The position numbers were made by a program, and so were the translations under genes. A model generated the notes under the pieces. It was not told the DNA's origin, ran no database searches, and saw nothing but the letters and a program-made list of their open reading frames with translations. From a virus (lineage: Duplodnaviria > Heunggongvirae > Uroviricota > Caudoviricetes), in IMG/VR virus record IMGVR_UViG_3300020576_002722, positions 1 to 64,000 of that record: a stretch of DNA of 64,000 nucleotides; one strand, given 5' to 3'. Numbering within the stretch: the first letter of the stretch is position 1; each line of letters starts with the position of its first letter. Shown in pieces: positions 31,991-62,675 of this stretch.

Positions 31991-33063
31991 TCCTCGTACT
32001 TGAGAAGGAACTGAGGATTGATCGCCTTGAACGATATGCGTCCACGGGTCACCGTCTTGCCGGTGATGAAGGTCTCGGTCATCTCTTCCAGGCTGCGCAC
32101 CACGATCCCCTCGGCCCATACGTCGGGGTTGATGGCGCTCTTGCGGGTGGCGAAACCAACCAGCTCGTCAACACTGAGGGCACCAAGGGTGAGGCAGTCG
32201 ATGTACGGGACCATCTTCAGGTCCATCGATCCGAATGCGACTGCGGCATCGCTAGGCAGGTACGGCTTGCCGGCATCGATGTCGAACACGTTGAAGAAGA
32301 GAACCTTGCGGCCGGTCAGCTTGTACTTGTTGCCCTGGATCCCTTCGCCGATCAGCTCGCCCTGGATGGCGATGTTCTTGCCGTAGTCGCGGAGCTTCTG
32401 CTCGACGTTCATCTCTCGGGCGTACTGCCAGAACGCATTCCTTTCGTCCTCCTTCAGCTCCAGGTTGCGCGAGCAGACCCCGAACTCCCCGTTGTACAGG
32501 TAGAAGGTAGCGCTGCTGCCGTCCATCTTCTCGCGGATCTCCACCTGCGCTGCGGCGTACTTGTCCAGGATGCCTGGCATGTTCTGGATCCGCTCCTCGT
32601 CCGTCTTGTGGATGAAGGATGGGAAGTAGCCGCGCACGGTACCGCCCAGGCAGGCCGGGATGGCGGGCTCGTACTTGATGATGCCGAGCAGCTCTGTCAC
32701 ATCGTACCCTTCTGCTGACAAGCCCAAGGCTGCGAACAGCTCGTGCTCGGCCGTGATAACATCGGCAAGGATCGACACCGGCATCATCAGGCCCTGGGAT
32801 ACCTGTCCCTTGAGTTTGATGGTGCGCACACGCATGTGGCGTGGCTTCATGAACTCGAACTCTGGTCGGTCAGGAAGGATGCTGTCCGGCTCTATGAATA
32901 CGATCGAATCGCCAATTCTGTGTCCGGCATCGTTCCTGATCACGCACTTCCACCCCAATACGCTGGCTACGGACACTTCGTCGGCTCCGGGTATTGGCTG
33001 GATGTCAGAGATCGTCTGTATGCTTGCAAGTTTTCTGCTCATGATTTTGTGTTTGAGAGCCAT
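31987..33063 (-). CDS. ATP-dependent RNA ligase, DraRnl/Rnl5-like (358 aa)
   Basis: N-terminal MSRKLASIQTISDIQPIPGADEVSVASVLGWKCVI OB-like module and KMDGSSATFY nucleotidyltransferase motif I (KxDG). Confidence 0.65.
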   Translation of the reverse strand: MALKHKIMSRKLASIQTISDIQPIPGADEVSVASVLGWKCVIRNDAGHRIGDSIVFIEPDSILPDRPEFEFMKPRHMRVRTIKLKGQVSQGLMMPVSILADVITAEHELFAALGLSAEGYDVTELLGIIKYEPAIPACLGGTVRGYFPSFIHKTDEERIQNMPGILDKYAAAQVEIREKMDGSSATFYLYNGEFGVCSRNLELKEDERNAFWQYAREMNVEQKLRDYGKNIAIQGELIGEGIQGNKYKLTGRKVLFFNVFDIDAGKPYLPSDAAVAFGSMDLKMVPYIDCLTLGALSVDELVGFATRKSAINPDVWAEGIVVRSLEEMTETFITGKTVTRGRISFKAINPQFLLKYEE

Positions 33064-33458
33064 TCGATCGCTGATCGTAGGCGGTTAACGTCATCTTTCA
33101 AGTGGCCTATTCCCTTATTACAGGCAGAGCACAGGAGTCCCCTGACCCTACCGGTCTTGTGGTCGTGATCTACTGTCACTGTATCCATTGCTTGACCCTT
33201 GGTCTTTGTGGGCATCTTCATCTTGCACTTGCATATACCACACTCTCCGCGAAACGCCATCCACATGGCGTCAAACTCGCCCGGATCAAGCCCATACTTC
33301 TTGCTCAGGTGCCAGTTCCTGCGATATATGGATATGTCTGCATGTATGCGTCTATGCGATCCATTGCATTTGTAACAACGGACTGACTTATTTCCAGCCG
33401 TACCGGTTCCGCAGTCAATGCAGTGGCCTCTGATCCTACGCGTCTTGACTAACTCCAT
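33039..33458 (-). CDS. Endonuclease VII-like Holliday-junction resolvase (139 aa)
   Basis: GECGICKCKM...VTVDHDHKTGRVRGLLCSACNKGIGH matches the T4 endonuclease VII family signature. Low-GC island. Confidence 0.75.
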   Translation of the reverse strand: MELVKTRRIRGHCIDCGTGTAGNKSVRCYKCNGSHRRIHADISIYRRNWHLSKKYGLDPGEFDAMWMAFRGECGICKCKMKMPTKTKGQAMDTVTVDHDHKTGRVRGLLCSACNKGIGHLKDDVNRLRSAIEWLSNTKS

Positions 33459-33906
33459 TTGCTTCGTTGCGTAATGTATCCCTTCTCATGAACATGATGA
33501 TCCACGACTCCTGATCACCGTGCTTGCCAGATTCAAGATCCTCCCGGTTATTGTCATGCCAAGACTGGTGACAATGGCCGCAAACGATGCGGATATTCCG
33601 AGGATCCGTCTTGTAGTTCCTATACGTTCCCCTCTCAAGGAGGTGGGAGAAGTTGATCGGCTGCGGTGGATCGGATATTGGAATGCCGCATACCTCACAG
33701 CAGTGTTCCCGTAGGCCAAGATCATCACCGGTCTCCCAGATCTCCAGGGCTGCTTTCCACCAGCCCTTGTTTGATGGTGCCCTCTTCCGAAGTGGCTTCC
33801 TCTTGCTCTCCAGCTTCGACGCCTTCGTCACCAGGCCCCTCTTCATCATCTCCGTCAACGATGGCTTGGTGAACGGCTTCCTTGCGAGCTGCTTTTTCCT
33901 GAGCAT
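33436..33906 (-). CDS. HNH endonuclease (up to 156 aa; true start uncertain)
   Basis: CCEVCG...IVCGHCHQSWH HNH core. The N-terminal ~60 aa overlap the upstream gene out of frame. Confidence 0.55.
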   Translation of the reverse strand: MLRKKQLARKPFTKPSLTEMMKRGLVTKASKLESKRKPLRKRAPSNKGWWKAALEIWETGDDLGLREHCCEVCGIPISDPPQPINFSHLLERGTYRNYKTDPRNIRIVCGHCHQSWHDNNREDLESGKHGDQESWIIMFMRRDTLRNEANGVSQDA

Positions 33907-44018: not shown

Positions 44019-44288
44019 TCAGCTGAACAGCTCGTTCTTCAGCTCTTTGAGCATGGTCAGCCCCTTCTCCAAGCTGGCCACCTCGTCGAGCGCATCAATG
44101 ATGGCCGCCCCGGACAACGGCACGGCGGACTTCAGCGTGTTCACTTTGCGCTTCGCCGATGTGAGCGCCTTTTGGGTGGCCAGGATATCGCTGTCCAGTT
44201 GCAACGCTTGCTCGGCGTCCGTCTGAGCGAACTGCTCTGCCTCCACCACCGCCTTGTCCTTTGTCAGACTTTCCAGATACTTGCCCAT
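44019..44288 (-). CDS. Coiled-coil hypothetical protein (89 aa from MGKYLESL)
   Basis: Protein-like K/E-rich helical sequence. The frame opens exactly where the upstream gene's protein-like sequence degrades (see findings). Confidence 0.4.
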   Translation of the reverse strand: MGKYLESLTKDKAVVEAEQFAQTDAEQALQLDSDILATQKALTSAKRKVNTLKSAVPLSGAAIIDALDEVASLEKGLTMLKELKNELFS

Positions 44289-44751
44289 GTTGGGTTGTTG
44301 TTTGTTTGGTGGATGCAGGTCCACCGGCCTTTATCTTCTTGAAGCGTTCGGCAAACATACGCACACCGTTGCTTATCTCTATCAGAGACGGATCTCCGTT
44401 CACTCCGACACGAATGACGATGTCCATGTGTCCGACCACAGCCCTGCTATCCCCTGACTTATCAATGACTTCCACGGTATCGCCCACCCGTATCACGTCG
44501 TCCGTCTGATGGACGCCGATGCAGAAATGGGCCAACATCTGCTCCTTGGTCACCATAGGTCTGCTGTTCTTGGCGCAGTTCTCGATGGAGTCACCAGAAA
44601 GGCCGGCTGCCCACAGCATGAATATCGGATACGTTCCATCGGCGGTAATCGAGGTCATCGATGCCCCGGCGGCCTTGATCTGTCGGATGAACTCCATCCG
44701 CTCGGCCATATCGTCGATGCGTACGGCGCATCCATCGGGTAGCTTGCTCAT
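44095..44751 (-). CDS. Hypothetical protein (218 aa from MSKLPDGCAV); C-terminal ~60 aa look like out-of-frame junk
   Basis: N-terminal 150 aa are protein-like (..DDVIRVGDTVEVIDKSGDSRAVVGHMDIVIRVGVNGDPSLIEI..). Overlaps the 44019 gene by ~190 nt. Confidence 0.4.
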   Translation of the reverse strand: MSKLPDGCAVRIDDMAERMEFIRQIKAAGASMTSITADGTYPIFMLWAAGLSGDSIENCAKNSRPMVTKEQMLAHFCIGVHQTDDVIRVGDTVEVIDKSGDSRAVVGHMDIVIRVGVNGDPSLIEISNGVRMFAERFKKIKAGGPASTKQTTTQHGQVSGKSDKGQGGGGGRAVRSDGRRASVATGQRYPGHPKGAHIGEAQSEHAEVRRAVVRGGHH

Positions 44752-45096
44752 GTTCCTTGTGTGTGGGCACAAAAATGGGGAACCGTTTCCGATTCCCCAA
44801 ATCTGTGTGACGAATAGTTAAGGGCGGCCGCTCACTTCGCCCTCAGAAGGACATGCGCTTTCCGTACAGGACCAGATCGCCATTGTTGCGGATCAGGTTG
44901 CGCATGATCTCCTTCATGCGACCGGTGGGTGACTTTTTGCCATGCGTGCCAGTCCATTGTTCTACATGCCGCGCCCCGAACAGGTGCTATGACCTGTTCG
45001 CGAGCGAATGGATCCCTGACGGGGCGCGGGCTTATTGTAAGTTACGGCATTCACGAAGTACGGTCATAGCTCGGCAAATGTATGAACTATTCCGAA

Positions 45097-45432
45097 TCAG
45101 TCGTTGGGGTGTTTGAACGCGTTAGGGTCCTGTCCGGGACGTGTGATCGTATTGGTGCGCAGCACGAAGGCGTACACCGCACAGCCACCCACCGGAGTAA
45201 TGATGCCGTGCGACGTTATGGTGTACCCGTGGTCGAATGCCCACCGATAGATCACATCCAGTGAGTTCTCGTCCTCCGGGGTGAACGGAACCACCTCGCT
45301 GTACTCGAACCGGGCTACCTTGATGCGGACGCGCATCCCACGGCGTTCGGTCGGCTGCATGTACGTGCCGGTGGCCACCAGTGCGTTATTCTGGTGGTTG
45401 GCCCCTCGTTGTGTCATCCTGTTCTTTCTCAT
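45097..45432 (-). CDS. Hypothetical protein (111 aa from MRKNRMTQ)
   Basis: Start placed 10 nt downstream of the ATGTGA-loop hairpin, as for other genes in this cluster. Confidence 0.45.
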   Translation of the reverse strand: MRKNRMTQRGANHQNNALVATGTYMQPTERRGMRVRIKVARFEYSEVVPFTPEDENSLDVIYRWAFDHGYTITSHGIITPVGGCAVYAFVLRTNTITRPGQDPNAFKHPND

Positions 45433-45459: not shown

Positions 45460-45500
45460 TGCGCGTCCCGGAATCGAACCGGGACGTGAACCGTTCGCGC
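45460..45500 (-). ncRNA. tRNA-like minihelix element TL2
   Basis: GCGCG-AACGGUUCACGU-CCCGG-UUCGAUU-CCGGG-ACGCGC. No D or anticodon arm. Abuts the 45504 stop. Confidence 0.45.
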
Positions 45501-47128: not shown

Positions 47129-47884
47129 TCACGATAGCCTGTTGGCGCTCGATGTTGCACCGGACACCGGCCTATTGAAATTCACATTGTCTCCAGCAGA
47201 ACGACCGGAGTTGTAGGCATCCCTGCTTCCTGCGTGTCTGCGGCTTGTCGTGGTCCGCAGCTTCACCCCAAGGTCGCCCAGATACTTCTTGTACTTCTGG
47301 ACGGTCACATTGCTCTTCACGACCATAATGGCCGTGCATGAGTTGCCCTCTGCCGCCTTTCGCTCTGCCACCATGCGACGTAGTCGTTCGGCGATACGTG
47401 ATCCCATGCCGAGCATGAACGAGGCACGCAGAGTACGACCGTGCATACTGGTACCGCCATCTCGTTTGAGGCGCTTCAATTCAGCCTGCTTCAGCTTCCA
47501 CGCCTGCTCCATAGCTCCCTGTATCATGTCGCACAGGTAGAAGGCCATCTCGGTGTCTTTGGCGGTTCCGAAGTATAGCATTTCGCCGTTGTACCACTTC
47601 GTCACCTTGGTATCGGTGAACTCGGAAATGGCAACGGAGCACGAGTTTACCACCTCAGGCCACCTGTTCATATTCACGCCCGTGGCGTACGGACGCTTTC
47701 GGGCACCGTACTGGTCACCCATGATGGACGCCTCGTCCATAGTGATGTTGTATTCGCGGATAAGGGAGTCCAACTTCTGTGCTGCCGCGATGGCCTCTGC
47801 CTCAGTGCAACCGTTGCTAACGGTACGCGCCTGAAGCTCCCGGATGATGCGGGCTATCCGCTCCCGATTAACGTTCTGTTCCAT
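47129..47884 (-). CDS. DUF2786-like phage protein (251 aa)
   Basis: N-terminal IARIIRELQARTVSNGCTEAEAIAAAQKLDSLIREYNI pattern typical of the DUF2786 family. Inference from memory. Confidence 0.45.
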   Translation of the reverse strand: MEQNVNRERIARIIRELQARTVSNGCTEAEAIAAAQKLDSLIREYNITMDEASIMGDQYGARKRPYATGVNMNRWPEVVNSCSVAISEFTDTKVTKWYNGEMLYFGTAKDTEMAFYLCDMIQGAMEQAWKLKQAELKRLKRDGGTSMHGRTLRASFMLGMGSRIAERLRRMVAERKAAEGNSCTAIMVVKSNVTVQKYKKYLGDLGVKLRTTTSRRHAGSRDAYNSGRSAGDNVNFNRPVSGATSSANRLS

Positions 47885-48394: not shown

Positions 48395-48434
48395 GCCCGC
48401 CGTGGAATCGAACCACGGCGTGAACCGTTCGGGC
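48395..48434 (-). ncRNA. tRNA-like minihelix element TL7
   Basis: GCCCG-AACGGUUCAC-GCCGUGG-UUCGAUU-CCACGGC-GGGC. Overlaps the 48434 stop by 1 nt. Confidence 0.45.
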
Positions 48435-49877: not shown

Positions 49878-50114
49878 TCAAGCTGCGTCGGGCCCTGAAG
49901 GCATTTCTACCACTTCCTCGTCCCATGTTTCTACCTCGGCCTCGGTGTCTTGGGTGAACTTACCCACGTCTGCAAGGTATTCCGCGCCTGCGGCAAGATT
50001 CTCCTTCAGTTCTTGGATGGATGCCCCGTTCATGGTGTATTCCACCTCGATAGTCAGTCTCAGTTTAGCGGTCTTCATGTTCGTGCTATGCTTAGCGCTT
50101 GTCTTGATATCCAT
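49878..50114 (-). CDS. Acidic hypothetical protein (78 aa)
   Basis: Start 9-10 nt after hairpin H8. Confidence 0.45.
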   Translation of the reverse strand: MDIKTSAKHSTNMKTAKLRLTIEVEYTMNGASIQELKENLAAGAEYLADVGKFTQDTEAEVETWDEEVVEMPSGPDAA

Positions 50115-50123
50115 GGCCTTGAT

Positions 50124-50141
50124 AGCGCAATGTGATGCGCT
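50124..50141 (-). promoter_or_regulatory. Conserved-loop hairpin H8 (AGCGCA-AUGUGA-UGCGCU)
   Basis: 9-10 nt upstream of the 50114 start. Same stem sequence as H3. Confidence 0.5.
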
Positions 50142-50659
50142 GCCTGTCCACCGGGCATCGCTCCCGGACCTCGTTGGCGGTTAATTACTCCGCCACGTTG
50201 CGCTTCATTAGCTGAACAGGTTGTGCGATGTTTCCGTTATCGTGCATCGCCTCACTGGCCCTTTCATGAGGTGGAGCCATACCCGGTGGCGCATTACGGT
50301 GCGCTCTACCTGCGCCCCCTATCCCGCATCGAAGCGGGTGGCCACGTAGTGACGGTGGTCGCGTCCTGCTAGGGGGTATAGTTCCAAGATGTCAAAGAAC
50401 GCGCTCTAGGTCACACCGCACCGTGTTTCTCGGTACAGTCCCGTTCCCAGCGGCCTTCCTACGGGCCATCGCGGCTAGTAGTTTCGGCACCACATCATGT
50501 GGCTGCTGGTCAGTGCGTTACGTGTGAAAGAACGACGCCTAGCTTGGTGGCCCTCACGGGTGACTGTTGCCGAACGCGATGCAAGTGTAGGCTGCCGCAT
50601 GGCCACCGACCTAATTTCCAGTGACGAACGGTTGGGAACGGGACGAACGGTTGGCCAGA

Positions 50660-50890
50660 CTAGGTGGCTTGATCGCCTGGAGGCCGCGATACTGTAGGCC
50701 AGAACGACATCTTGTAGCCAAGTAGCTGCAAATAGGCTTGGAGCGTAGACATGGACGTGGTAAGCACGTTGGCTTCGAGCCTGGCCACGGTCACTGGCTT
50801 CACCCCGATGCGTTCGGCCACGTCCGCTTGTGACCACCCGAGCCGCCTGCGTTTGGCGATCACAAAGTTGTCCATCTTGCGCCTGGCCAT
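50660..50890 (-). CDS. XRE/Cro-CI-family helix-turn-helix transcriptional regulator (76 aa from MARRKMDNF)
   Basis: LGWSQADVAERIGVKPVTVARLEANV is a classic HTH_3 motif. The upstream part of the ORF-track entry is junk. Confidence 0.6.
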   Translation of the reverse strand: MARRKMDNFVIAKRRRLGWSQADVAERIGVKPVTVARLEANVLTTSMSTLQAYLQLLGYKMSFWPTVSRPPGDQAT

Positions 50891-51159
50891 GCCCCAAAGG
50901 TAAGCGGCCACGCGGATACGGTGATCACGCTGCCCATGCGATAGCGATAGGAGCGGATAGCCCGCAGCCCGAAGGGCGAGGACTATGAGCGGATAGCGCG
51001 GGCCGAAGGCATCGCCCAAAGGATGGAAGCACTCTACTACAAGAGAGAGAACATGCTGGTGATCAGGCTGTTGGACCGGTAACACGTAGACACATAGCCA
51101 TATCACTATGTGTAAGCCCTTTCTCGGGGACAATAGGTGAACGCGTGCGCGTGGTGATC

Positions 51160-51390
51160 TGGTGGCTGATCTTGGGTAGTGGTGGCCATGTTGGGGACTA
51201 TCCCCACGCCCACGACATTAAAAGGCCCACCAGTCAAGGCTTTCCACTCAAACGCGTGCCCATACACGTACACCCCTCAAAGGGCTCACCCCTCACACAC
51301 TGGTGGCCAGAGACAAGGTGGCCAGTGATCAGGTTTGACCTGTTATTGGTGGCCCAGACTAGGATCCCTTTTCACTTTGTGGCCCCGATC
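51160..51390. repeat. Cluster of (T)GGTGGCC(A) direct repeats plus CACCCCTCA x2 in the large intergenic control region
   Basis: GGTGGC at 51161, 51181, 51302, 51317 and 51349, and GTGGCC at 51379. CACCCCTCA at 51271 and 51288. G8 tract near 51411-51443. Confidence 0.5.
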
Positions 51391-51592
51391 GAGGCGACCC
51401 GTTTCCCTTTTTGGGAGGCCAGGGGGGAGGGCAAGGGGGGGGAGTCCCCCAAATTCAGATATACCGGGCACCCCTTTTCAGGCAAGCCAGGGGGTATCCG
51501 CCCCATACCGGTACCTGCTTGTATCGAATTTCATGATCAAAGCGAAACACATCCCAGGAGTTGTATTACATTTGCGGGCATAAACGATACAC

Positions 51593-51820
51593 ATGACTAT
51601 AGACACACTGATCATCGCAGCCTGGGCCACCGCCTCCCTTGGTGTGTTCGCCTATGGCGTGCAGGAGATCCTCTTGGATGGGGGCGAGGATGACTTCGGG
51701 AACAAGATGAGGCACCGGATCGACATCCCTCTGCTCATGGCTACCACCTGGCCACTATGGTGCCTTGTCGTGTGGCCGGCTGAGGCTATCACATGGATCT
51801 GGAAAAAGCTGGTACGATGA
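51593..51820 (+). CDS. Small membrane protein (75 aa)
   Basis: Two hydrophobic helices. First plus-strand gene after the control region. Confidence 0.4.
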   Translation: MTIDTLIIAAWATASLGVFAYGVQEILLDGGEDDFGNKMRHRIDIPLLMATTWPLWCLVVWPAEAITWIWKKLVR

Positions 51821-52035
51821 GCCCAGTATCACGAGCAGCCTACCAGAGGTACCTCAGGTGGGACAAGAACCCGATCGCCAAGAGAACGGTCGGCCGCCTG
51901 TCGGTCTGCTTCATCCGTGGCCTGGATGACGAGGCCAAGAAGTTCGTGCCAGCCACCCGGTACCGGAACCTGGAGAACGAGGTGGCCACACTGAACGGAT
52001 GGAACCTCGGCCCGGTCCAACCATCCATCACTTAG
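51817..52035 (+). CDS. Small hypothetical protein (72 aa)
   Basis: ATGA-coupled refinement of the 51793 start. Confidence 0.35.
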   Translation: MSPVSRAAYQRYLRWDKNPIAKRTVGRLSVCFIRGLDDEAKKFVPATRYRNLENEVATLNGWNLGPVQPSIT

Positions 52036-52052
52036 CACTTGCACTATCAGAA

Positions 52053-53063
52053 ATGGCGCTTACATTTGCGGGCATGAGTCTGAACGAGTACCTGCGACAG
52101 AAGGTCCATTACATCCGCAAACAACGGAAACAGCTTCCGAACGACGCCTGGCACATGGACGATAGCACTCGTCAACAGATGCGCGACATCATCAGTGACC
52201 TTGGGGCACTGCAAGATATTCAGGCCGGCAGGCGCAAGGTGCTTCCTGGTGTCGTCGACAGGACCAAGAGTGGACCTATTGCGCACCCGGATGAATACGG
52301 ACCCGTGATCTATCGGTACGACGGGGTCGTCTATCGCCGGAAGAACGGAGTCACCACCGCCCTTGTTGAGCTGGATGAGACGATCAAGTGCGACGGATGC
52401 AACGTCTACCCAAACCAAGAAACCAACAACACACACATGGTAAGCCAAAGCAAGATCGATGAGGCCAAGTCCAGGGGTATTGTACCTGGAGCAACGATCA
52501 AGTGCGCATCGGTTCCCGACAGGTACGGCGTGGTCATGCCCACCTCGTACTGGAGGACAACGAGTGGCGGGGCTATCGATGTCGGCCTCGACAACAAGGG
52601 CACACAACTGTTCGCCTACTCCGGAGTGTTCAACAAGTGGTCCGAAGTGATCACCCTGGCACCGCCACCCATCGGGCTCCAGCCACAGGACGCCGTGAAG
52701 GCATCAGGGGCAATGCTCGCCGCCATCGCCGACAGGGCCGCCGAACTCGGGCTTCTCGACAGGAAGTTCGCGGGTGAGAACGGATCCGACTACCTGAATA
52801 GCGTGTCGGTACACTGGGACCCGACATGCTATTGCCCACTCCAGGTCGGCCACACACACGTCAAGCATAACCTTCTGACGCCGGACGAGTTCCTCCGTCG
52901 CCTGGAGAGCACGGTGTTGCAGCCTGTCACCAAGATCACAGAGCCGCGCATTGGCCGCGATCTTGAGCACACGGTCAAGTTCAACAAGGGCTCCATCACC
53001 GTTGGACGCACGACCGTTCCCAATGAAACCGTCCGCAAGATCGCGGCAAACCTCAAGGACTGA
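52053..53063 (+). CDS. Hypothetical protein (336 aa from MALTFAGMSL)
   Basis: ORF. Start set after the upstream stop. Confidence 0.5.
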   Translation: MALTFAGMSLNEYLRQKVHYIRKQRKQLPNDAWHMDDSTRQQMRDIISDLGALQDIQAGRRKVLPGVVDRTKSGPIAHPDEYGPVIYRYDGVVYRRKNGVTTALVELDETIKCDGCNVYPNQETNNTHMVSQSKIDEAKSRGIVPGATIKCASVPDRYGVVMPTSYWRTTSGGAIDVGLDNKGTQLFAYSGVFNKWSEVITLAPPPIGLQPQDAVKASGAMLAAIADRAAELGLLDRKFAGENGSDYLNSVSVHWDPTCYCPLQVGHTHVKHNLLTPDEFLRRLESTVLQPVTKITEPRIGRDLEHTVKFNKGSITVGRTTVPNETVRKIAANLKD

Positions 53064-53248
53064 TGACCTACCACATCGTTCAAGCGCTTGCCCTGGCCGT
53101 GGCCCTGTGGCTATCCGGTAACTACGTCGGCAACCTGGCTGTGGCTATCAAGGAGCACAGCAATGTTGCTGTGTCAAAGGCCAATATCAGCCTGCGGCTA
53201 TCAGCCATAGCGTGGGCCATATTCTGGTACATGTCATGGGGACACTGA
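53063..53248 (+). CDS. Small membrane protein (61 aa)
   Basis: Hydrophobic helix. Overlap-coupled. Confidence 0.35.
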   Translation: MTYHIVQALALAVALWLSGNYVGNLAVAIKEHSNVAVSKANISLRLSAIAWAIFWYMSWGH

Positions 53249-53439
53249 GACTGTTCCTCCTGTGCGTGGCCGGGTTCTCGCTCATCCTGTGGCTGGCAGA
53301 GTCTATCGATCAGCGGGCCACTATGGGCAGGAATCGCGTATACGTAGACCGAAGTACGTACGAGCCTGCCATAATGAGACCCATCTGGTGGGCAGCGGTA
53401 GCCATTGTGTCGACCTGCGCAGCCTATGCGCTTTCATGA
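53236..53439 (+). CDS. Small membrane protein (67 aa)
   Basis: Two TM helices. Start refined. Confidence 0.3.
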   Translation: MGTLRLFLLCVAGFSLILWLAESIDQRATMGRNRVYVDRSTYEPAIMRPIWWAAVAIVSTCAAYALS

Positions 53440-53645
53440 GCTGATCCTCGTGGCCCTGGCGGCTGCATCGATCGGATACCAGCTGACGGATTTCGGGATC
53501 ATGTGGGAGGACGAGTTCCACATGATCCCGCCCGCTCGTCTATTGATACACGAGCCCCGTCGAACTTCATTGCCGTTCTACCATCCAGAGGCTACCTTTG
53601 TGAGGAGGAGATCTATCAGAAGGTCTTCTGTCCGAAAAAACGAGG

Positions 53646-54026
53646 ATGAAATACTGGATCGCGTTCATCGTTGCTCTCTTCTGCCTGGACTCGTGCGCCC
53701 AGAGGTTGATGAGGAGCCACCTGGTTGGTGACTCTACCTCCAAGTGCATCCTGGTGATCAGGGACATGGACTCCTATGGCGATCCGAAGGCGTACGAGTT
53801 CCGCAAGTACAACGCCTTCAACCTGAAGCCCGGTGACTACCTGATCGGGTACTTCATCGACACCGGCTTCGTACACACCGAGATCATGCACGTCTCCCAC
53901 GAGAAGAGCGTGCAGGACCAGTTCATCCTGATCCGTCCGGTTCCACTCCACAAGGTGCGCTTCGCGCCTGCTGACAACGGGGACTCCACATCGTTCTTCT
54001 TTGATCTCGATTACCTGGACCCATGA
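53646..54026 (+). CDS. Lipoprotein (126 aa)
   Basis: Lipobox ALFCLDSCAQ. A-rich leader (CGAAAAAACGAGGATGAAAT). Confidence 0.55.
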   Translation: MKYWIAFIVALFCLDSCAQRLMRSHLVGDSTSKCILVIRDMDSYGDPKAYEFRKYNAFNLKPGDYLIGYFIDTGFVHTEIMHVSHEKSVQDQFILIRPVPLHKVRFAPADNGDSTSFFFDLDYLDP

Positions 54027-61204: not shown

Positions 61205-61986
61205 TTGAAGTAGGAGTCGATGCGTTCGCGGATCTCCCTCATGCTTCCAGCCCTAGTGATCACCCCGTCAGCGAACACCACATCGAAGGCGCAGTCGTGA
61301 ACATCTTCCCATGATGCCTGCTCCTGCAATAGGAACCCGTGATCGTGGTCGTGGTGTACAGCCAGGAGCCCCTTGGCGCTGTTCTTTCCACCATTGTCGG
61401 TCTTCGGCTTCTTGAAGATCTCGCGAGGCTTGTAGTTCACCACTCCGTAGGTGGCCTTGATCGCCATGCCGTAGGTGTCACGGGTCACATACTGGTACGT
61501 GTAGCTGCCGATGCCGAACACGACATTGGTGCTGGCGAACCCTTTCGCGATCAGCCTGTCGACGATCTTCTGGGCACGCTCCGGGGTGATGCTGTCTCCG
61601 TAGATGGCACCGATATGCGGGTCGAGAACCTTGAATCCCTTCTCGTTCACGGTACCTCCGAAGGTGTTCCATAGGCACTCAATGAGCCCTTTGCCCTCTG
61701 GGGTCATCTTGGTAAAGGTTCTAGTACCAGGAAGATGGTATCCGCACAGGATGTCCACCGGATCCCCGCTGTCTGGCCTGATCACCACCTTGCCTTCACG
61801 ATTCATGATCTCTGATTTCAGGGCCGGCAGATACTCGGTGACCACCTTCCAGAAGTCCCATGTGTCGCTGACGATGCTGATGATCCCGGACGGATGTACC
61901 TCAGTGATCAGGCGCTTGAAGTGGAGAAATTCCCCTCTTGTAAGTCTCTCTTCTTCAGAGAGTTTCCTTGTCCGTGTTTTCTTCAT
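61201..61986 (-). CDS. nadV: Nicotinamide phosphoribosyltransferase, C-terminal half (separate ORF, 261 aa)
   Basis: IVSDTWDFW, VIRPDSGDP, IYGDSIT and VVFGIGSYTYQYVTRDTYGMAIKATYGVVN align with the C-terminal catalytic half of NAMPT. Confidence 0.8.
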   Translation of the reverse strand: MKKTRTRKLSEEERLTRGEFLHFKRLITEVHPSGIISIVSDTWDFWKVVTEYLPALKSEIMNREGKVVIRPDSGDPVDILCGYHLPGTRTFTKMTPEGKGLIECLWNTFGGTVNEKGFKVLDPHIGAIYGDSITPERAQKIVDRLIAKGFASTNVVFGIGSYTYQYVTRDTYGMAIKATYGVVNYKPREIFKKPKTDNGGKNSAKGLLAVHHDHDHGFLLQEQASWEDVHDCAFDVVFADGVITRAGSMREIRERIDSYFK

Positions 61987-62012
61987 ACTTTTGCTGTCGT
62001 TAACATGACCCT

Positions 62013-62675
62013 ATGATCGGGACAAAGATATGCTCCAGATGCAAGGATCGAAAGGTTCTTGACGAATTTCCAGTGAACTCCAGGTTCCCGGACGGAAGGA
62101 ACTCCAAATGCAAGCTCTGTACGAACGCACTGAACAAGGCTTACAGGGACTCCAATAAGGAGGCATTCTGCGCATCCAGGAGAAGGCACTACATAGCAAA
62201 CCTGGAGAAGATGCGATCTGGAAGGCGAAAGTACGCCGCATCCAACAAGGACAAAAAGAGCCAGTATGATGTATCGTACAGGGCTCAAAACAAATCCAAA
62301 ATAGCGGCCTACAAGAAACAGTGGGAAAGGAACCTCATGAGTGACCCTGTGTTCAGGATCAAGAGAAACCTTCGCCGCAGGATTAGTCACGTCCTTAACG
62401 GAAGACTGAAGACGGCAGATACGTTCAGCCTCGTTGGATGTACGCCGTCCGAGTTCAGGGACCACATTCAGTCCCAATGGACCGAAGGGATGTCCTGGGA
62501 TAACTACGGATACCGTGGATGGCATGTTGATCATGTGATACCGTGCTGCTCATTTGATCTGTCTACCGAGGATGGCCAGAGAAGGTGTTTTCACTTCAGC
62601 AACCAAAGGCCGCTATGGGCATTAGACAACCTTCGGAAGGGCAGGAAGATCCCTGACCCACTTCCATTGTCCTGA
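62013..62675 (+). mobile_element. HNH homing endonuclease gene (220 aa) on the strand opposite to the nadV gene it splits
   Basis: CSRCKDRK and CKLC zinc knuckles. GYRGWHVDHVIPCCSF...NQRPLWALDNLRKG HNH core. AT-rich relative to flanks. Its 3' end overlaps the nadV N-half tail by 54 nt. Confidence 0.75.

Follow-up and report, generated by a model that had tools for sequence, protein, structure and literature searches.

The locus and its genes

The window analysed here is a 64-kb stretch of the virus record IMGVR_UViG_3300020576_002722. The region under study (positions 50142-51593, ~1.4 kb) contains the gene of a small helix-turn-helix (HTH) regulator between two long gaps, one downstream of the gene, which is described here as a leader RNA, and one upstream of it that carries promoters on both sides. 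The window has a G+C content of ~58% and encodes very large structural proteins, 4-5 tRNAs, an RNA ligase, a primase-like protein and NAMPT-like enzymes. In a gene model based on codon usage, the genes are arranged in blocks on the plus strand up to ~31.1 kb, on the minus strand from 31.1 to 50.9 kb, on the plus strand from 51.6 to 56.1 kb and then mostly on the minus strand. According to this model, the region is the single site where the 19-kb leftward block and a rightward block diverge. The AT skew changes its sign at the region and the gene orientation flips at the same place. Together with the -7 boxes that point outward on both sides and with non-coding DNA that can be aligned even with a distant relative, this bears out the divergent regulatory region of the original prediction, which had been made from the sequence alone. 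It is a divergent promoter region, yet one with promoters that are 665 bp apart and do not overlap.

No close relative was found among deposited phages (INPHARED, searched by megablast with the region and by tblastn with a 1159-aa structural protein). Seven related contigs were obtained via the HTH protein and a neighbouring 336-aa protein. Six of these are close relatives with 88-98% identity over the shared region, and the distant one, L009, is 68.5% identical. Scans of IMG/VR with the flanking proteins yielded just two further distant contigs, both without the elements described below.

The two gaps measure 545 nt (50115-50659) and 702 nt (50891-51592). Codon log-odds were negative for all of their open reading frames (ORFs) save one of 31 aa (50185-50280, +5.5 bits), which lies in a window-specific cassette, and were positive for the flanking small genes. 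Counted by codon position, the substitutions among the relatives were 4/5/30 in the HTH gene, 8/11/5 in its possible N-terminal extension, 22/18/16 in a long plus-strand ORF and 21/15/23 in the downstream gap. Frame-breaking indels were found in the gaps between close relatives. Given the codon usage, the lack of codon periodicity in the substitutions and the frame-shifting indels, the gaps are regarded as non-coding. The region is thus largely non-coding, as had been predicted.

The HTH protein belongs to the XRE family, and its nearest solved structures are the antitoxins HipB/HigA. Its phage matches are generic antitoxin-type HTH genes of N15 and phiKO2 only, where gp48 is paired with a RelE/ParE toxin, and they give no information on its function here. 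The region of helices 2-3, which is the recognition region, is nearly invariant among the relatives, so that true operators should be found among the invariant elements. A longer protein, either of 157 aa (starting at a TTG at 51133) or of 119 aa (the gene call of one relative), was rejected, since codon usage and a flat substitution phase argue against it and the frame is broken by indels in L006. The gene itself has 39 variable sites in 228 nt (~17%), mostly synonymous. In contrast, the first rightward genes (51593-52050) are nearly free of substitutions among the close relatives, and the two sides of the control region therefore differ in their recent history.

Both promoters were recognised by their -7 boxes. 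In Bacteroidota, the housekeeping sigma factor uses a -7 element with the consensus TAnnTTTG, a G at -5 and a set spacing to +1; promoters of this sigma-ABfr type have a weak or absent -33 TTTG, and the phylum does not use Shine-Dalgarno sites (PMC6847099, PMC7366714). Exact boxes of this kind, identified by motif, are present at 50902 for the leftward promoter P_HTH and at 51567 for the rightward promoter P_R. Of 16 matches in the window, 10-12 are located in the 13% of the DNA that is non-coding and are aimed at a gene or a tRNA cluster (24335), with P ~7e-6. Three boxes put +1 at or within 2 nt of an ATG (examples are 50890, 52074 and 54120), which suggests leaderless mRNAs and a Bacteroidota-like host. 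At P_HTH, with G(-5) at 50895, +1 coincides with the first base of the HTH start codon (A, 50890), and the HTH mRNA is thus predicted to be leaderless. In L009, a 10-nt insertion brings in a new in-frame ATG at an unchanged distance from this box. The predicted start of P_R at ~51579 is 14 nt ahead of the ATG at 51593, with the box 19 nt before the first rightward gene. A 16-mer at P_R, TTACATTTGCGGGCAT, recurs at 52060-52075 ahead of the next large gene, and the equivalent of the P_R box in L009 is TATCTTTG. The genes of the window are without Shine-Dalgarno sites: GGAG was found upstream of just 3 of 79 gene starts, and the upstream regions tend to be A-rich. Neither sigma-70 promoters nor intrinsic terminators were detected above chance.

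Putative leader RNA and BoxA matches downstream of the HTH gene

The 545-nt untranslated stretch consists of a conserved part from 50660 to ~50315 (~345 nt) and a variable part (~50314-50115). The conserved part is retained in relatives of 95-97% identity, and even in L009 down to ~50405. In the direction of transcription, the leader contains two C-rich repeats, an allele-specific segment, the element UACACUUGCAUCGC, which is invariant among the relatives, hairpin P2, a 28-mer, hairpins P3 and P4, a second conserved block and the tRNA-like element TL0 (Table 1). The distance between the first repeat, R1, and the invariant CCGUAGGAAG is exactly 200 nt in every relative, L009 included.

The direct repeat GACGAACGGTTGG occurs at 50623 and 50642, in exact copies as predicted, and nowhere else in the window. 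As RNA, R1 and R2 read CCAACCGUUCGUC twice and are C-rich (47% C, 16% G), and their core AAC-N-GTTCGTC is shared by all relatives. At the centre of AAC-N-GTT, the relatives have C, G or T with no compensation, which fits a DNA site better than an RNA helix. A palindromic core had also been predicted for the repeats, with recurrence in the spacers that hold the tRNA-like elements TL2 and TL7. The repeats hold the imperfect GAACGGTTG and not GAACGGTTC, whereas the recurrence was confirmed for the exact GAACGGTTC, of which minus-strand copies are found at 45488-45496 and 48422-48430, both directly 5' of a T-arm-like GGTTCGATTCC.

The hairpins of the leader are supported by paired changes. P2 exists in two allelic forms with ~15 differing positions and an identical fold, and G-C/A-U, C-G/G-C and C-G/G-C pairs change on both sides. 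The P3 stem is CCACA/UGUGG in the window, CCACG/CGUGG in L008 and L018 and CCCGC/GCGGG in L009, and the P4 stems are preserved through G-U changes. On a structure of 27 pairs, 96.3% of the cells were paired and five pairs changed on both sides. This covariation score was reached by none of 500 shuffles, and slid controls were 20-44% paired. The G-U pairs and the GUGA loop of P2 are compatible with the minus strand only. When the window was scanned with Rfam 15 at the gathering threshold, only tRNAs were found, and a scan of 49900-51700 at E <= 10 gave one spurious match to a long non-coding RNA. The structured RNA predicted for 50142-50660 can therefore be upheld in part: a conserved and covarying RNA is present at ~50315-50660 on the minus strand, but the two hairpins that had been cited for it lie in the variable cassette, and the RNA looks like a cis-acting leader with BoxA sites and not like a free-standing molecule.

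In the entire window, GYTCTTTNACA is matched at just two sites, GTTCTTTCACA and GTTCTTTGACA, both on the sense strand, with 0.16 matches expected and two reached in 0 of 100 shuffles. Both can be written as CGTTCTTT(C/G)ACA, and no further site of this type was found in the relatives, of each of which up to 20 kb was covered. All 7 relatives carry BoxA-1 unchanged, and 6 of the 7 have BoxA-2. In comparison with published boxA instances (Supplementary file 4 of PMC7665894), BoxA-2 is identical at 17 of 20 positions to the one in the leader of clustered regularly interspaced short palindromic repeats (CRISPR) of Odoribacter (Bacteroidia; AGTTCTTTGACATGTTGAAA) and at 16 of 20 to the one of Haliscomenobacter (CGCTCTTTGACAAGTTGGTA), and the BoxA-1 variant TCTTTCACA is itself among the published instances. 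The consensus GYTCTTTAANA is gamma-proteobacterial; G or C at position 8 is tolerated in published instances of other phyla. BoxA protects untranslated CRISPR arrays from Rho and the motif is found ahead of such arrays in Bacteroidetes (PMC7665894). The two sites described here follow the predicted P_HTH start at distances of 357 and 490 nt, within the 545 untranslated nt and ahead of tRNA-like spacers. They combine a match to the consensus with a position on the transcribed strand, as judged from a promoter assigned by motif, and with conservation. The last base of P2 is the first base of BoxA-1 and the invariant GUGA loop of this covarying hairpin is 17 nt 5' of BoxA-1, which is the order found in rrn leaders. 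A nut site of the lambda type has a BoxB hairpin with a GNRA-like loop beside BoxA, to which the arginine-rich motif of a phage N protein binds.

With a probability of roughly 0.55, the region can be considered as the early-gene control centre of a phage with Bacteroidota-type host signals, in which the HTH gene is followed by a Nus-factor antitermination leader similar to lambda cro-nutR or to an rrn leader. Host RNA polymerase would start at P_HTH, perhaps also at the weak internal box TACACTTG (50589-50582), and transcribe the leader, and the BoxA RNAs would recruit host NusB/NusE and other Nus factors. The polymerase modified in this way would resist Rho-dependent termination in the leftward early operon, with its long, untranslated and highly structured spacers and at least eight tRNA-like elements and hairpins. 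The layout would correspond to that of lambda P_R-cro-nutR-tR1 and of the leaders of rRNA operons and CRISPR arrays.

Several observations weigh against an antitermination leader. The promoters as well as the read-through from P_HTH were assigned by motif only. BoxA is a short motif from which we infer binding of NusB/NusE; at a position occupied by A in the E. coli consensus, both copies carry C or G. BoxA-2 is not kept in L009, the most distant relative. The covariation comes from ~3 independent sequence types and the structure tested was derived from the same sequences, while the entire leader does not exceed shuffled sequence in stability (z -0.8 for the window and -2.1 for L009). An N-like protein was not identified in Pfam and PHROG scans of the neighbouring genes, and no search for N- or Q-like antiterminators was carried out beyond these.

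Two other explanations concern the leader itself. The AAC-N-GTT repeats could be sites of the HTH protein that control an internal leftward promoter at TACACTTG, and the so-called P1 hairpin would then be mere spacer DNA. This box is one mismatch away from TAnnTTTG and is invariant in all relatives including L009. Its predicted start is at the foot of P2, ~45 nt before BoxA-1 and thus at a typical promoter-to-BoxA distance, the 35 bp from R2 to the box are hypervariable like a spacer, and L009 and L005 hold a third AACCGT(T/A) site that adjoins the box. The mismatch, however, affects T(-8), one of six nearly invariant positions, the variant TAHHCTTG is not enriched in the non-coding DNA of the window (4 of 18), and the start is predicted by motif only. 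The internal promoter is therefore rated as doubtful; it would be compatible with the function proposed for BoxA.

The stretch 50400-50660 could alternatively be a free-standing, trans-acting RNA of a new class, for example a small RNA that derives from the 3' untranslated region and is freed by RNase P at TL0. The covarying hairpins do separate invariant single-stranded stretches of 14, 28 and 10 nt, the fixed spacing of 200 nt and the missing Rfam match would agree with such an RNA, and a tRNA-like element on the 3' side could set its end. Yet neither a promoter nor a terminator of its own was detected, the motifs that match best are BoxA and thus cis-acting, the family is too small for more covariation, and no complementarity to a target is conserved in the relatives. 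A trans-acting RNA is accordingly held to be unlikely. The P4 CI-RNA and the P1 c4-type immunity RNA were considered as well, in view of the repeats and the tRNA-like ends, and were rejected as no conserved complementary targets were found.

Exact-motif scans outside the relatives gave matches in five lake contigs with 183-nt tandem arrays that share a 20-mer with BoxA-1 and one AT-rich coding match (metagenomes), one AT-rich coding match (viral contigs) and matches in Halobacillus and Vibrio with no rRNA nearby (genomes). With 19 specified bases and ~1e12 bases searched, a few chance matches are expected and all of these were treated as such. The lake loci (L010 and L012-L015) are AT-richer, and each 183-nt unit holds TTCTTTCACACGTAACGCAC, which equals 20 nt of the BoxA-1 block, with no likeness beyond it. 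This match is probably due to chance given the size of the database, though the shared part includes the BoxA-like core.

Table 1. Features of the region and of the adjoining leftward operon (positions in the 64-kb window).
Feature	Position	Strand	Remarks
XRE-family helix-turn-helix regulator gene, 76 aa	50660-50890	minus	Pfam HTH_3, E 4e-11
Leftward promoter P_HTH, -7 box TACCTTTG	50902-50895	minus	exact TAnnTTTG; invariant in all relatives
Rightward promoter P_R, -7 box TACATTTG	51567-51574	plus	exact TAnnTTTG
Direct repeats R1 (50654-50642) and R2 (50635-50623)	50623-50654	minus	directly 3' of the HTH stop codon
Hairpin P2, irregular 46-nt stem-loop	50533-50578	minus	invariant GUGA (GNRA) tetraloop at 50551-50560
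BoxA-1 GUUCUUUCACA	50533-50523	minus	within the invariant 28-mer GUCGUUCUUUCACACNUAACGCACUGAC (50509-50536)
Hairpins P3 (50487-50506) and P4 (50459-50481)	50459-50506	minus	followed by the invariant CCGUAGGAAG (50455-50464)
BoxA-2 GUUCUUUGACA	50400-50390	minus	context CGUUCUUUGACAUCUUGGAA; 13 nt 5' of TL0, the first tRNA-like element
TL0, tRNA-like	50315-50376	minus	7-bp acceptor-like stem CCCCCUA/UAGGGGG, connector hairpin, T-arm-like CCCGC-UUCGAU-GCGGG
TL1, tRNA-like cloverleaf	50143-50220	minus	closed by the 8-bp acceptor-like stem CCUGUUCA/UGGACAGG
Hairpin AGCGCA-UCACAU-UGCGCU	50124-50141	minus	9 nt before the ATG of a 78-aa gene (49878-50114); first of eight
UCACAU loop starts	50135, 49784, 49289, 48787, 47907, 47045, 46483, 45452	minus	
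Conserved non-coding DNA between the promoters	50903-51566	none	alignment with four relatives
Two GAGCGGATAGC units	50951-51010		small symmetric CC-TTC-GG hairpins
Invariant palindrome ACACATAG-N8-CTATGTGT	51090-51113		
Invariant palindrome ACGCGTGCGCGT	51141-51152		
Invariant palindrome GGGGACTATCCCC	51193-51205		
Hypervariable block	51300-51400		single such block between the promoters
Invariant palindrome GGGGAGTCCCC	51439-51449		
Invariant palindrome TACCGGTA	51506-51513		

DNA between the promoters

The DNA between the promoters can be aligned with L009 at 68.5% identity, while the flanking rightward genes can be aligned just in short pieces. Apart from the palindromes listed in Table 1, both GGGGA-N1-3-TCCCC sites of the window fall between the promoters. 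Structured RNA was not found in this segment, as no fold on either strand beat shuffled sequence (z -0.9 to +0.4). The segment is read as protein-binding DNA. The HTH regulator probably binds some of the invariant palindromes and/or the AAC-N-GTT repeats and would in this way time early expression.

The original prediction had spoken of a Cro/CI-like gene and a switch. An HTH_3 gene is indeed present, but the switch was not borne out. A lysogeny switch as in lambda would require the HTH protein to act as a CI/Cro repressor on GGTGGCC or GAACGGTTG operators between divergent promoters. As in the CI/Cro switches of temperate phages, an XRE-family HTH gene stands beside divergent promoters with palindromic candidate operators: several invariant palindromes occur between the promoters, and the two 11-bp imperfect palindromes CGAAC-G-GTTGG, 19 bp apart, are kept in all relatives with a central base that is free as for a dimer-binding site. 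Such switches consist, however, of two divergent repressor genes with multipartite operators over both promoters. Here, a single regulator gene with antitoxins as its nearest structures was found, a second HTH was not detected in the three rightward proteins scanned (75, 80 and 354 aa, all without Pfam match), and the promoters are separated by 665 bp with neither overlap nor a tripartite operator. The AAC-N-GTT pair is 3' of the gene, no such site is near a promoter, and GGTGGCC is mostly unconserved and common window-wide. An integrase was not found among ~20 proteins scanned, with most genes of the window outside that scan, and no lysogeny functions were seen. A switch of this kind is thus improbable.

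Further repeats had been predicted upstream of the HTH gene. Both CACCCCTCA copies (51271 and 51287) and the G8 tract (51435-51442) are present as described. The CACCCCTCA pair is kept in close relatives only, and the tract, the sole G8 of the window, adjoins the invariant GGGGAGTCCCC palindrome. This homopolymer has 8 bases in the window and 9 in L003 and L005; it is deleted together with 14 nt in L006 and interrupted in L009. The motif GGTGGCC is over-represented window-wide (59 copies vs 13 expected) and its density peaks in the region with 7-8 per 1.45 kb vs ~1.3 on average, four of the copies being located within 174 nt (51181-51354). In place of the five or six copies predicted upstream of the HTH gene, four exact plus-strand copies were counted, of which one is kept in all relatives.

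An origin with iterons, which had been proposed on the basis of these repeats, is without support because the region has no AT-rich block, no DnaA box and no turn of the GC skew. The G+C minimum is 0.44 at the rightward promoter, and of the two skews it is the AT skew alone that changes sign here. In favour of a replication origin, short direct repeats and palindromes cluster locally within an extended non-coding segment. An iteron origin is characterised by three or more regularly spaced direct repeats of 17-22 bp together with an AT-rich unwinding element, by DnaA boxes and by an initiator gene next to it, whereas the repeats found are 7-13 nt long, irregularly spaced and mostly unconserved. 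No initiator gene adjoins the region, and the primase-like gene and the gene with a DnaA_C domain are 10-15 kb off. An origin at this place is very improbable.

The motif GTGATCA(G/C)G, which includes GATC, was found 15 times in the window vs 2 expected, and three of these sites are in the region (50921, 51059 and 51325). A perfect 17-mer, GGAGCGGATAGCCCGCA, occurs at 50950-50966 on the plus strand and at 47848-47864 on the minus strand, where it covers codons 7-12 of a DUF2786/DUF7168 gene. Antisense pairing via this 17-mer was ruled out, since the second copy at the start of the DUF2786 gene is not found in the relatives; for the same reason it is probably a trace of recombination. For the blocks 50550-50650 and 51300-51400, relatives that are otherwise 95-97% identical carry one of two or three allelic forms that differ sharply. 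The forms of the two blocks assort independently, which points to recombination of small modules.

tRNA-like elements and comparison with known systems

The leader hands over to a series of tRNA-like elements on the minus strand. The fold of TL0 is no more stable than that of shuffled sequence (z ~0) and is kept in close relatives; one pair survives a C-to-U change as G-U, and L006 shows compensation in the connector stem. In L003 and L005, TL0 is directly followed by a UCACAU hairpin and a gene. For TL1, the minimum-free-energy fold is a cloverleaf with z = -3.0. The two strong hairpins of the original prediction are present and turned out to be its anticodon-arm-like stem (50177-50195) and its T-arm-like stem (50150-50166). 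The architecture of TL1 is common to six other elements of the operon. Its exact cassette is not found in the relatives, and L006, L008 and L018 have a shorter element with a similar AGCGA T-loop. ARAGORN did not call TL0 or TL1 as tRNA and RF00005 did not match them even at E up to 10. With tRNA, both share just the acceptor stem and the T-arm layout. The sister elements gave only weak tmRNA-like and mascRNA-like matches in Rfam.

Eight minus-strand hairpins with an invariant UCACAU loop and varied stems of 5-6 bp were found between 45452 and 50135, each 3-11 nt before an ATG, with ~1 expected by chance. Seven of the eight are preceded by a truncated tRNA-like element with acceptor stem, connector and T-arm, mostly with a loop of the GGTTCGANTCC type. 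The system of tRNA-like elements and UCACAU hairpins is present in L005, L006, L009 and L018 and is not found in the distant contigs L001 and L002. Recombination junctions among the relatives coincide with the UCACAU hairpins. Further T-arm-like sites were noted at 48417, 46007 and 43995. Elsewhere in the window, an 809-nt gap without coding-like ORF (44288-45097) has a counterpart of the same size in L006 (13774-14583) and holds two minus-strand TAnnTTTG boxes (45082 and 44359). Other long gaps are at 33042-33725, 53248-53646 and 61986-62622.

The tRNA-like punctuation is more unusual than the control region and is mostly located beyond 50142-51593. A tentative extension of the antitermination reading, for which the odds are rather low, is that leader, tRNA-like elements and UCACAU hairpins form one system. 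The early mRNA operon would then be built like an rRNA/tRNA operon, with Nus factors carrying the polymerase through and RNase P/Z cutting at the tRNA-like spacers. Monocistronic mRNAs with a fixed-loop 5' hairpin 3-11 nt before the AUG would be released in a host without Shine-Dalgarno pairing, and the units would double as recombination cassettes. Such an operon would be a counterpart, in a virus of bacteria, of mitochondrial tRNA punctuation.

The components of the locus are of known kinds, namely an XRE regulator at divergent promoters and BoxA antitermination. In the literature searched, no description was found of their combination with Bacteroidota-type signals, a leaderless regulator gene, two BoxA sites in a covarying 345-nt leader and a hand-over to tRNA-like spacers. 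To our knowledge, almost nothing is known about early transcription in phages of Bacteroidota-type hosts. The locus offers a compact and testable model with leaderless genes at the +1 of TAnnTTTG boxes, a BoxA leader, cistrons separated by tRNA-like elements and a conserved RNA of ~250-350 nt that is absent from Rfam. If true, the BoxA leader would extend Nus antitermination to a phage of a Bacteroidota-type host; so far, it has been described for rRNA operons, CRISPR arrays and lambdoid phages. If the BoxA reading is wrong, the locus is still a well-delimited conserved regulatory module, but an ordinary one.

The put RNA of phage HK022 mediates protein-independent antitermination with ~70 nt and two specific stem-loops and has no BoxA. 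It resembles the leader as a structured cis-acting RNA just downstream of an early promoter, but no similarity between the two was found and the Rfam scan of 49900-51700 (E <= 10) gave no match to it. The PeSL cassettes of T4 are structured elements before early genes and at recombination junctions, and in mitochondrial tRNA punctuation, tRNAs between the cistrons direct cleavage. Similarly, repeated structured elements are found here before early genes at recombination junctions, and their tRNA shape could direct cuts by RNase P/RNase Z. They differ in that the tRNA-like elements are truncated and that each comes with a fixed UCACAU-loop hairpin 3-11 nt before an ATG.

The closest parallels concern the leader. 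With lambda P_R-cro-nutR-tR1, the locus shares a small Cro-type HTH gene in first place, a putative BoxA RNA site next, a GNRA-type hairpin, a C-rich stretch and a long early operon. It differs from lambda, to which there is no sequence homology, in its Bacteroidota-type promoters, its two BoxA copies, a hairpin that is 5' of BoxA as in rrn and not 3' of it, the tRNA-like elements that follow and the lack of an identified N-like protein. With the leaders of rRNA operons and CRISPR arrays it shares a BoxA of the form GYTCTTT(A/G/C)ACA upstream of a long, untranslated and structured RNA that would otherwise be a target of Rho (PMC7665894, PMC5725501). In contrast to these, the putative protected transcript would be a phage mRNA operon with tRNA-like spacers.

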